DNA of 308 bases from Escherichia coli (GTDB taxonomy: Bacteria; Pseudomonadota; Gammaproteobacteria; Enterobacterales; Enterobacteriaceae), in the NCBI RefSeq assembly GCF_003334385.1, contig NZ_QOWN01000208.1. One strand, written 5' to 3'. Below, one piece after another: positions 2 through 308 of this stretch. The position numbers and the translations under genes are program-made. The notes beneath the pieces were generated by a model. It saw only the letters and a program-made list of their open reading frames with translations. It searched no databases and was not told the DNA's origin. Positions within the stretch are counted from its first letter, which is position 1. The number at the start of each line of letters is the position of its first letter.

Positions 2-55
2 CCGCCACTTGCCATTCCGTACAGAAGTCGGATATCCTTCGCCCGAAAAGCATGA
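2..55 (+). CDS. Possible 3' end of an upstream protein-coding gene (partial; C-terminus ...PPLAIPYRSRISFARKA, TGA stop at 53-55)
   Basis: Of the three forward frames, only frame 2 has a stop (TGA 53-55; next in-frame TAA 74-76) before the terminator at 81-115; frames 1 and 3 read through the hairpin. If a forward-strand gene ends before the terminator, it must be in this frame. Only 17 codons are visible, several are rare (AGA, CGG, ATA, CGA), and the product cannot be identified. The gene may equally have ended upstream of the window. Confidence 0.2.
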   Translation, partial: PPLAIPYRSRISFARKA

Positions 56-115: not shown

Positions 116-182
116 CATGTCCACCGATAATCCTGTTGGTAAAAACCGGTAATGGCATAAAAATTCTGAATATCTTCACATT

Positions 183-210
183 TTCACAAACTGACTGTGG
201 CGCGTATAAT
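183..210 (+). promoter_or_regulatory. Sigma70-type promoter: -35 TTCACA (183-188), 16-bp spacer, -10 TATAAT (205-210); predicted start near G217
   Basis: The -10 hexamer matches the TATAAT consensus exactly and the -35 matches TTGACA at 5 of 6 positions, with 16-bp spacing. The region upstream (about 157-182) is A/T-rich and UP-element-like. A purine at 217 lies 7 nt past the -10. There is no extended -10 TG. Confidence 0.6.
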
Positions 211-216
211 TTCGCT

Positions 217-308
217 GCGTTAGTGTTTTTTTGCCCGAGTAACAAAAACAACTCCTTAACTCTAATCTTTGTCTGTCCCCGCAGCTCCGCGATCACTGCG
301 GGATTTTT
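217..308 (+). ncRNA. Candidate small regulatory RNA of about 90 nt (alternative: terminated 5' leader or attenuator of a gene beyond the window)
   Basis: The segment is bounded by the predicted promoter start (~217) and the intrinsic terminator at 278-308. It has no ATG; the only GTG (223-225) has no Shine-Dalgarno. It contains AACAAAAACAAC (241-252), an (ARN)4 pattern of the kind bound by the Hfq distal face, then CUCCUU (252-257), complementary to the AAGGAG Shine-Dalgarno consensus, and ends in a hairpin plus U-tail. I could not match it to any sRNA sequence I remember. Confidence 0.35.
278..308 (+). terminator. Rho-independent terminator (3' end of the candidate sRNA or leader)
   Basis: A 7-bp stem, CCCGCAG (278-284) pairing with CTGCGGG (296-302), with five G-C pairs and an 11-nt loop (285-295), followed by ATTTTT (303-308). 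The T-run reaches the window edge, so its full length is unknown. The T-tract lies 3' of the stem only on the forward strand, which gives the orientation. Confidence 0.65.

Follow-up and report, generated by a model that had tools for sequence, protein, structure and literature searches.

A lambdoid Escherichia coli prophage carries the gene for the small RNA PasB between its tail genes I and J

The window, that is, the whole 308-nt stretch of E. coli DNA analyzed here, corresponds to the gap that separates tail assembly gene I from tail tip gene J (the I-J gap) in a lambdoid prophage. The unit described below is on the + strand and antisense to the tail operon, I and J both being encoded on the opposite strand in every annotated copy, and the I-J context is shared by UPEC, EPEC, EHEC, and 12 phage records. 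Matches to the window were found in 1651 of 5426 complete E. coli genomes, at up to six places per genome, and in 53 phage records, Stx-converting phages among them. Because several phages match positions 157-308 alone, we regard this part, hereafter the PasB unit, as a module separate from positions 1-156. The features of the unit are as follows.

162-183, + strand: CRP-like operator, AATTCTGA-ATATCT-TCACATTT, with invariant half-sites (core 165-180, centre between 172 and 173)
183-188, + strand: -35-like hexamer TTCACA, located by a consensus scan and taken as the -35 element in a preliminary description of the window
205-210, + strand: -10 hexamer TATAAT, located by a consensus scan
217-308, + strand: predicted PasB primary transcript, based on promoter geometry, with +1 at about G217 and a U-run that extends 3 nt past the window (about 95 nt)
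226-232, + strand: U7 run, present as a U5-U9 run in nearly all body classes
232-308, + strand: equivalent of the published mature PasB, from the Table S6 coordinates mapped by alignment (about 80 nt in this allele, 83 nt in E2348/69)
238-252, + strand: (ARN)5 run, AGU-AAC-AAA-AAC-AAC, a candidate Hfq distal-face motif
248-261, + strand: candidate seed 1, ACAACUCCUUAACU, with the conserved family core AAYUCC
262-276, + strand: candidate seed 2, CUAAUCUUUGUCUGU, with the family core AAUCUUC, in which AATCTT is nearly invariant
278-308, + strand: Rho-independent terminator, with the stem CCCGCAG/CTGCGGG (278-284/296-302), an 11-nt loop, an A, and a U-run from 304

The preliminary description had read positions 183-308 as a free-standing sRNA gene, with a near-consensus sigma70 promoter, a GC-rich hairpin and T-tract on the same strand, and a transcript of about 90 nt running from 217 to the U-tract. 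The promoter is indeed present, since TTCACA (183-188), a 16-nt spacer, and TATAAT (205-210) match the consensus at 11 of 12 positions, and the three promoter-like sites in the window are well above the 0.2 ± 0.5 in dinucleotide shuffles. The hairpin and T-tract were likewise found by scanning, folding, and family alignment; the window holds two terminator-like sites (0.2 ± 0.4 in shuffles), and the one on the + strand ends at 302 and is followed by ATTTTT. Its register was set by folding of 217-308, which gave a 7-bp stem, together with the family alignment. The T-run comprises eight residues in the source genome and runs past the window end, the U-tail being counted as 7-8 residues, and the terminator is located about 10-16 nt from the gene I stop codon on the other strand.

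The sRNA encoded by this unit is the already described PasB and not a discovery. The PasB northern probe (AATCCCGCAGTGATCGCGGAGCT) matches positions 283-305 exactly on the minus strand and therefore detects an RNA of the + strand. In EPEC O127:H6 E2348/69, PasB (E2348CN_0006) was assigned to the minus strand of NC_011601.1 at 1466343..1466261, 83 nt within prophage PP6 (Table S6 of Pearl Mizrahi et al., 2021, PMC8550237), and this interval falls between gene I (ending at 1466255) and gene J (starting at 1466496). The E2348/69 PasB locus is about 95% identical to positions 157-308 and has the same gap, orientation, promoter, operator, and terminator as the unit in the window, from which it differs by a 4-nt deletion and several substitutions at 258-270 and one extra U in the tail of the window allele. 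Because of the exact probe match, the same I-J gap, and the identity of about 95%, we assigned the candidate to PasB; the proposed free-standing sRNA gene is thus supported and has a name. The similarity search led to the I-J gap of lambdoid prophages, and the Rfam search was blank: no family was at threshold for the window, 183-308 lacked even weak matches, and PasB is absent from Rfam 15. Reading of the sequence alone had located a real sRNA gene. As a side observation, the segment between the operator and J at the E2348/69 locus is unrelated to the module at 1-156 of the window.

RIL-seq in EPEC E2348/69 yielded five "pathogenicity-associated" sRNAs, of which PasB is one; northern analysis validated it, and its stability is Hfq-dependent (PMC8550237). 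The log2 fold changes of pasB in the hfq mutant versus the wild type were -6.8 and -2.4, and its baseMean was 482-1082 versus 2-27 for the flanking tail genes (PMC8550237), a difference that led us to conclude that PasB has its own promoter in the lysogen. In RIL-seq, PasB had 37 interactions and was the second RNA in 99-100% of its chimeras, which is a signature of sRNAs, with 1820 chimeras under the non-activating condition; its partners under the activating condition were bfpB, ler, perB, bfpI, ftsZ, galE, rplX, and an RNA adjoining pasA (PMC8550237). PasB is thus among the more connected accessory-genome sRNAs of the EPEC Hfq interactome and contacts the virulence mRNAs ler, perB, and bfp. 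It is also covered in a preprint by Zhu, Shabalina and Storz (2026), and no function or regulator has been reported in the Pas literature.

A discrete Hfq-dependent RNA of about 83 nt is known from E2348/69, and the intact promoter and terminator suggest that the present allele would yield one as well. The anticipated RNA of about 90 nt differed from the published one in its 5' end, since the published start in E2348/69, which is based on coverage, maps to position 232, the last U of the U7 run. The conserved GCGUUA (GCGTTA) begins at the predicted start, 217, throughout the family, and the -10 hexamer predicts a length of about 95 nt for this allele, 98 nt for that of E2348/69, and 91 nt for that of EHEC O157:H7 Sakai; the northern size of EcOnc22, a Sakai sRNA discussed below (about 85 nt), is between the published and the predicted-start lengths. 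By reading of the sequence, we found no plausible -10 element that could serve a start at 232. The gap between 217 and 232 is likely to reflect processing at the U-run or imprecise annotation, and the U7 run may itself serve in processing or pair with the A-rich run. A 5' hairpin of the U-run and the A-run was predicted for this allele and was discarded as a conserved element, as it was not recovered as a consensus across classes.

PasB belongs to a wider family. A sensitive search found full-length homologs of 157-308 at 71-95% identity in 147 phage records, and when viral contigs were scanned with the upstream block, more than 120 loci emerged, whose 49 unique RNA variants fall into at least six body classes. 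Among 73 I-J gaps beside close relatives of the window's I protein, which represent one tail lineage, 70 carry the PasB unit, and the segment from the unit to J ranges from 83 to 746 nt. The three gaps without the unit hold an unrelated insert of about 851 nt (L184, L192), and in two gaps of the L165 type, operator and J are separated by a module of 746 nt. The motifs common to the RNA classes are GCGUUA, the U-run, the ARN run, AAYUCC, UAAUCUUC, and the terminator. The terminator, with a loop of 4 to 16 nt, is the sole structure conserved throughout the family and shows compensatory changes at two pairs, such as CCCACAG/CTGTGGG in L023.

The -10 hexamer and the compensated terminator stem thus bore out the expected conservation, while the -35 hexamer did not. 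Of 136 units that contain the operator, 125 have, at a constant spacing from it, a -10 of the ATAAT or ATCAT type. TTCACA, in contrast, is specific to certain classes and cannot be the -35 element of the family; it is kept only in PasB-proper and class B sequences, and diverged homologs have TTCTGT, TTTGCA, or TCCGGC in its place.

Three sRNAs of EHEC O157:H7 Sakai, EcOnc22, EcOnc23, and EcOnc24, are about 85 nt long, bound by Hfq, and destabilized without it (Tree et al., 2014, PMC4104026). We found that they sit in the I-J gaps of prophages Sp15 (Stx1), Sp14, and Sp11, respectively, and that in each of these prophages their shared northern probe maps to a PasB-like body through an exact match of 23 contiguous bases. 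Because of the same I-J gaps and the position of this probe, PasB and EcOnc22-24 constitute one family. EcOnc22-24 share with PasB the strand, an identical operator block, the distance to the -10, the terminator stems, and the motifs AAYUCC and UAAUCUUC, but belong to a different body class, with about 73% identity over the unit, a different -35 region, and an ARN run of three triplets. Since the sequence around the motifs differs, the targets of EcOnc22-24 probably differ from those of PasB; a 2021 review still gives them as unknown. The link between PasB and EcOnc is unstated in both Pas papers: the EHEC homologs in Table S6 are those of PasA and PasD, with none given for PasB, and the name "EcOnc" is never used in the 2026 preprint. 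We also noted that the EcOnc22-24 coordinates of 2014 are about 148-150 nt below the probe position in the current RefSeq sequence (L135-L137, NC_002695.2) and, taken at face value, would wrongly indicate the neighboring module.

The preliminary description had missed a regulatory block just upstream of position 183. In the family this block has the form AAWTTCTGA-N6-TCACATTT (162-183), the N6 spacer being its sole variable part. Its half-sites are invariant in 14 homologs at 71-100% identity, and the distance from the operator centre to the first base of the -10 is 32 bp in 13 of the 14 BLAST-derived homologs. The core consensus of CRP is TGTGA-N6-TCACA within a 22-bp site, and canonical CRP sites are centred at -41.5 or -61.5. 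When compared with this established consensus, rather than with a position weight matrix, the operator matches at 9 of 10 core positions, and its flanks match also. Across 1.07 Mb of other phage DNA, cores of this kind turn up by chance 0.038 times per kb, which corresponds to 0.012 expected per window. Readings of the operator as a LexA, Cra, or FNR site were set aside as poorer fits than CRP, judged by eye. With +1 at 217, the operator centre is at about -44.5 and not at the class II position of -41.5, and the PasB promoter is therefore not classed as a canonical class II CRP promoter.

The invariant CRP-like site raises the hypothesis that PasB might be controlled by carbon source. Spf is repressed by CRP. 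According to Pearl Mizrahi et al. (2021, PMC8550237), PasB is more plentiful in overnight static LB cultures than in exponential cultures in DMEM. Spf behaves in the opposite way in LB and DMEM, conditions that differ in many other variables, and the high level of PasB in LB and its low level in DMEM are thus circumstantial support for CRP control. Promoter, start site, and CRP are not mentioned in either Pas paper. The sequence comparisons establish the family link of PasB with EcOnc22-24 and the conservation of the operator, and CRP is a candidate regulator. Only tentatively do we put forward the full picture, in which PasB and EcOnc22-24 form one widespread family of the I-J junction with an invariant operator and terminator and a diversifying body of at least six classes, the operator being perhaps a CRP or CRP/FNR-type site that ties expression to the carbon status of the host. 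If true, this would give a first handle on when these virulence-associated prophage sRNAs are made.

As to the RNA body, at least three consecutive ARN triplets are present at a fixed position in 44 of 48 unique variants despite the differing sequences of the classes, and the run length of those 44 is reached by 0-6% of shuffles. ARN motifs bind the distal face of Hfq, and such binding has been reported for AgvB. The window sequence contains the modules expected of an Hfq-binding sRNA, namely the U-tail of the terminator and the ARN run. The segment before the terminator, including 248-276, is predicted to be unstructured and contains the two candidate seeds. The allele in the window is rare, with 4 of 5426 genomes 100% identical to the window; most E. 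coli copies have four more bases in the RNA body (312-nt alignments), and compared with them this allele lacks 4 nt (TTCA/TCAT) and carries several substitutions at 258-270, in the second motif. Because the deletion falls in that motif, the target set of this allele may differ.

We examined complementarity as the length of contiguous helices between the E2348/69 allele of PasB and six RIL-seq partner fragments of E2348/69. PasB nt 32-45 (ACAACUCCUUCACA), which represent seed 1, form 9-bp helices with ler and bfpI and a 7-bp helix with perB, and the summed helix length over the six partners was 41 against a background of 30.1 ± 3.0 (P = 0.0035). For PasB nt 46-58 (UUGAUCUUCAUUU), the E2348/69 form of seed 2, the helices measured 10 bp in the case of bfpI and 8 bp in that of ler (P = 0.0015), whereas the control segments gave P = 0.22 and 0.35. 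The enriched segments coincide with the two motifs conserved throughout the family, and the predicted helices are short (7-10 bp) and inside coding regions. Unrestricted duplex folding of PasB with its partners was uninformative because shuffled sequences scored equally well. An anti-Shine-Dalgarno mimic (CUCCUUA, as in the 16S rRNA tail) was also considered and rejected, as the sites predicted in ler, bfpI, perB, and ftsZ are in coding regions and not at ribosome-binding sites. The partners galE, bfp, and ler are also found with many other sRNAs in RIL-seq, and some PasB chimeras may reflect abundance on Hfq and not regulation.

Hfq-dependent base pairing in trans is the most likely mechanism. 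Transcription would start from the sigma70 -10 hexamer (205-210), probably near 217, and proceed antisense to the tail operon, which is silent in the lysogen, until the intrinsic terminator (278-308) ends a transcript of about 80-95 nt, as shown for the E2348/69 allele. Hfq, on which PasB depends according to the literature, would bind the U-tail and, judging from the motifs, probably the (ARN)5 run. The unstructured region 248-276 would serve as a bipartite seed that pairs with the ler, bfpI, bfpB, and perB mRNAs, mostly in coding regions; the chimeras with these four mRNAs are from the literature, and the pairing registers are predicted here. We consider it highly probable that window 157-308, as the PasB gene, encodes a prophage-borne, Hfq-dependent, trans-acting sRNA and is a self-contained "moron" insert between I and J. 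The leads added by the present analysis are the unification of PasB with EcOnc22-24, the invariant CRP-like operator, the ARN run, the narrowing of the seed to two motifs, and the deletion in this allele.

The position of the gene raises the question of action in cis, in which the RNA would pair with the I-J intergenic part of the late tail mRNA during lytic growth and alter processing or the expression of I and J. The RNA is perfectly complementary to that part of the tail-operon mRNA and is antisense between I and J at every locus examined, with 70 of the 73 gaps of one tail lineage carrying it, and this fixed position is consistent with a phage-related role. However, it overlaps neither the coding sequence nor the ribosome-binding site of I or J, and the J start is 84-190 nt or more past the promoter, across the variable module. 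The body diverges strongly between classes while the tail genes stay similar, which better fits diversifying trans-acting seeds, and lysogens with silent tail genes contain abundant PasB, which is found in chimeras with host and virulence mRNAs. Action in cis is thus improbable. It is also quite unlikely that the unit is only a transcriptional insulator with incidental promoter- and terminator-like elements, the stable RNA being a functionless by-product. PasB has no validated targets, its published functions are given as unknown, and the neighboring variable module also has terminator-like hairpins; nevertheless, the operator, the -10, the ARN run, the two motifs, and the terminator are conserved in homologs at 71-100% identity while the linkers drift, the RNA is Hfq-dependent and behaves like an sRNA in RIL-seq, and the complementarity to partners is concentrated in the conserved motifs.

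Titration of another sRNA, as by the prophage anti-sRNAs AgvB and AsxR with their ARN motifs, would be conceivable through the C/A-rich AACAAAAACAAC, a single-stranded segment (241-252) that resembles GcvB target elements and could mimic GcvB target sites. The longest helix between PasB and GcvB is 6 bp, however, and the duplex energy with GcvB R1 was no better than that of shuffles (fraction 0.23-0.37), whereas AgvB as the positive control gave a 10-bp helix and a fraction of 0.013. Together with the absence of a gcvB-pasB chimera among the RIL-seq pairs of the activating condition, a locus that is not the PR' moron site, and the lack of an Rfam match to AgvB/AsxR, this makes a role as a GcvB sponge very unlikely, and we rejected it on the basis of the duplex test. 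A small protein, encoded on the + strand or by an antisense "MKINV..." ORF on the tail-operon strand, is hardly credible. In its favor, both strands contain mechanical ORFs, the annotation of phage PhiR12_4 includes a 32-aa hypothetical protein on the strand of the tail operon, and in some classes the antisense ATG follows an SD-like GGGGA or GGGAGA. The + strand ORFs, however, have their starts ahead of the transcription start, and neither their frame nor their extent is the same in the window, E2348/69, and Sakai, alleles between which no conserved ORF was found on the + strand of the unit; the absence of an ATG from 217-308, as originally described, was confirmed by reading of the sequence. 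The 4-nt indel and other non-triplet indels break every frame, and the similarity of the antisense ORFs, of 22, 32, and 39 aa, ends where nucleotide conservation ends. The most abundant classes have CGT in place of the antisense ATG, and in the window it is deleted, for which reason the MKINV... ORF is probably not a gene. This ORF, which corresponds to about 176-270 of the window on the minus strand, starts at the reverse complement of the conserved AATCTTCAT, with an SD-like G-run before it; it is found at L002 6304-6372 (+), L135 3267-3386 (-), and L005 520-618 (-) and encodes 22 aa in E2348/69, 39 aa in Sakai, and 32 aa in PhiR12_4.

Trans-acting PasB can also be compared with other prophage sRNAs. 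AgvB/AsxR (EcOnc01-03) are, like PasB, prophage-encoded, short, and Hfq-bound, with ARN motifs, and both families combine a conserved terminator region with variable target recognition and are convergent to phage genes. In contrast to PasB, AgvB/AsxR are located at the PR' moron site, are 51-60 nt long, and have no sequence or Rfam relationship to it. An AgvB/AsxR identity was rejected, as that family is defined by the PR' moron site and a shared conserved 3' region of about 42 nt and the present locus is the I-J gap, and AgvB/AsxR-type mimicry of a core sRNA target site (GcvB R1) was set aside in view of the 6-bp helix. HnrS (EcOnc10-12) resembles PasB as a multicopy, Hfq-associated sRNA of the prophage late region in EHEC and EPEC; it is 66 nt long, acts at the hha ribosome-binding site, and affects the LEE virulence circuitry. 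HnrS was rejected as the identity of the present RNA, because it corresponds to EcOnc10-12 in Sp9, Sp10, and Sp12, outside the I-J gap family, and so was svsR, which is at the 3' end of cI.

In some viral contigs, PasB-like units occur in tandem, with two operator copies 180-470 nt apart (L036 at 8302 and 8772, L053 at 1686 and 1865, L071 at 9949 and 10128, and L131). In the second copy the terminator stem has diverged (CCUCCCGU.../...GCGGGAG), and no recognisable -10 was seen in the second copies of L053, L071, and L131.

The neighboring part of the window, 1-156, is an independent, exchangeable module that separates the PasB operator from the start of J. Within it, a 14-bp hairpin of very high stability at 80-111 (z = -7.3 on the + strand and -6.0 on the - strand) resembles a terminator in both directions. 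A weak promoter-like site at 9-38 (+) is located upstream of this hairpin and could yield a second short transcript of about 70 nt. Alternative versions of the module, 83-93 nt long, have a different hairpin that faces the direction of the tail operon and shows compensatory variation.
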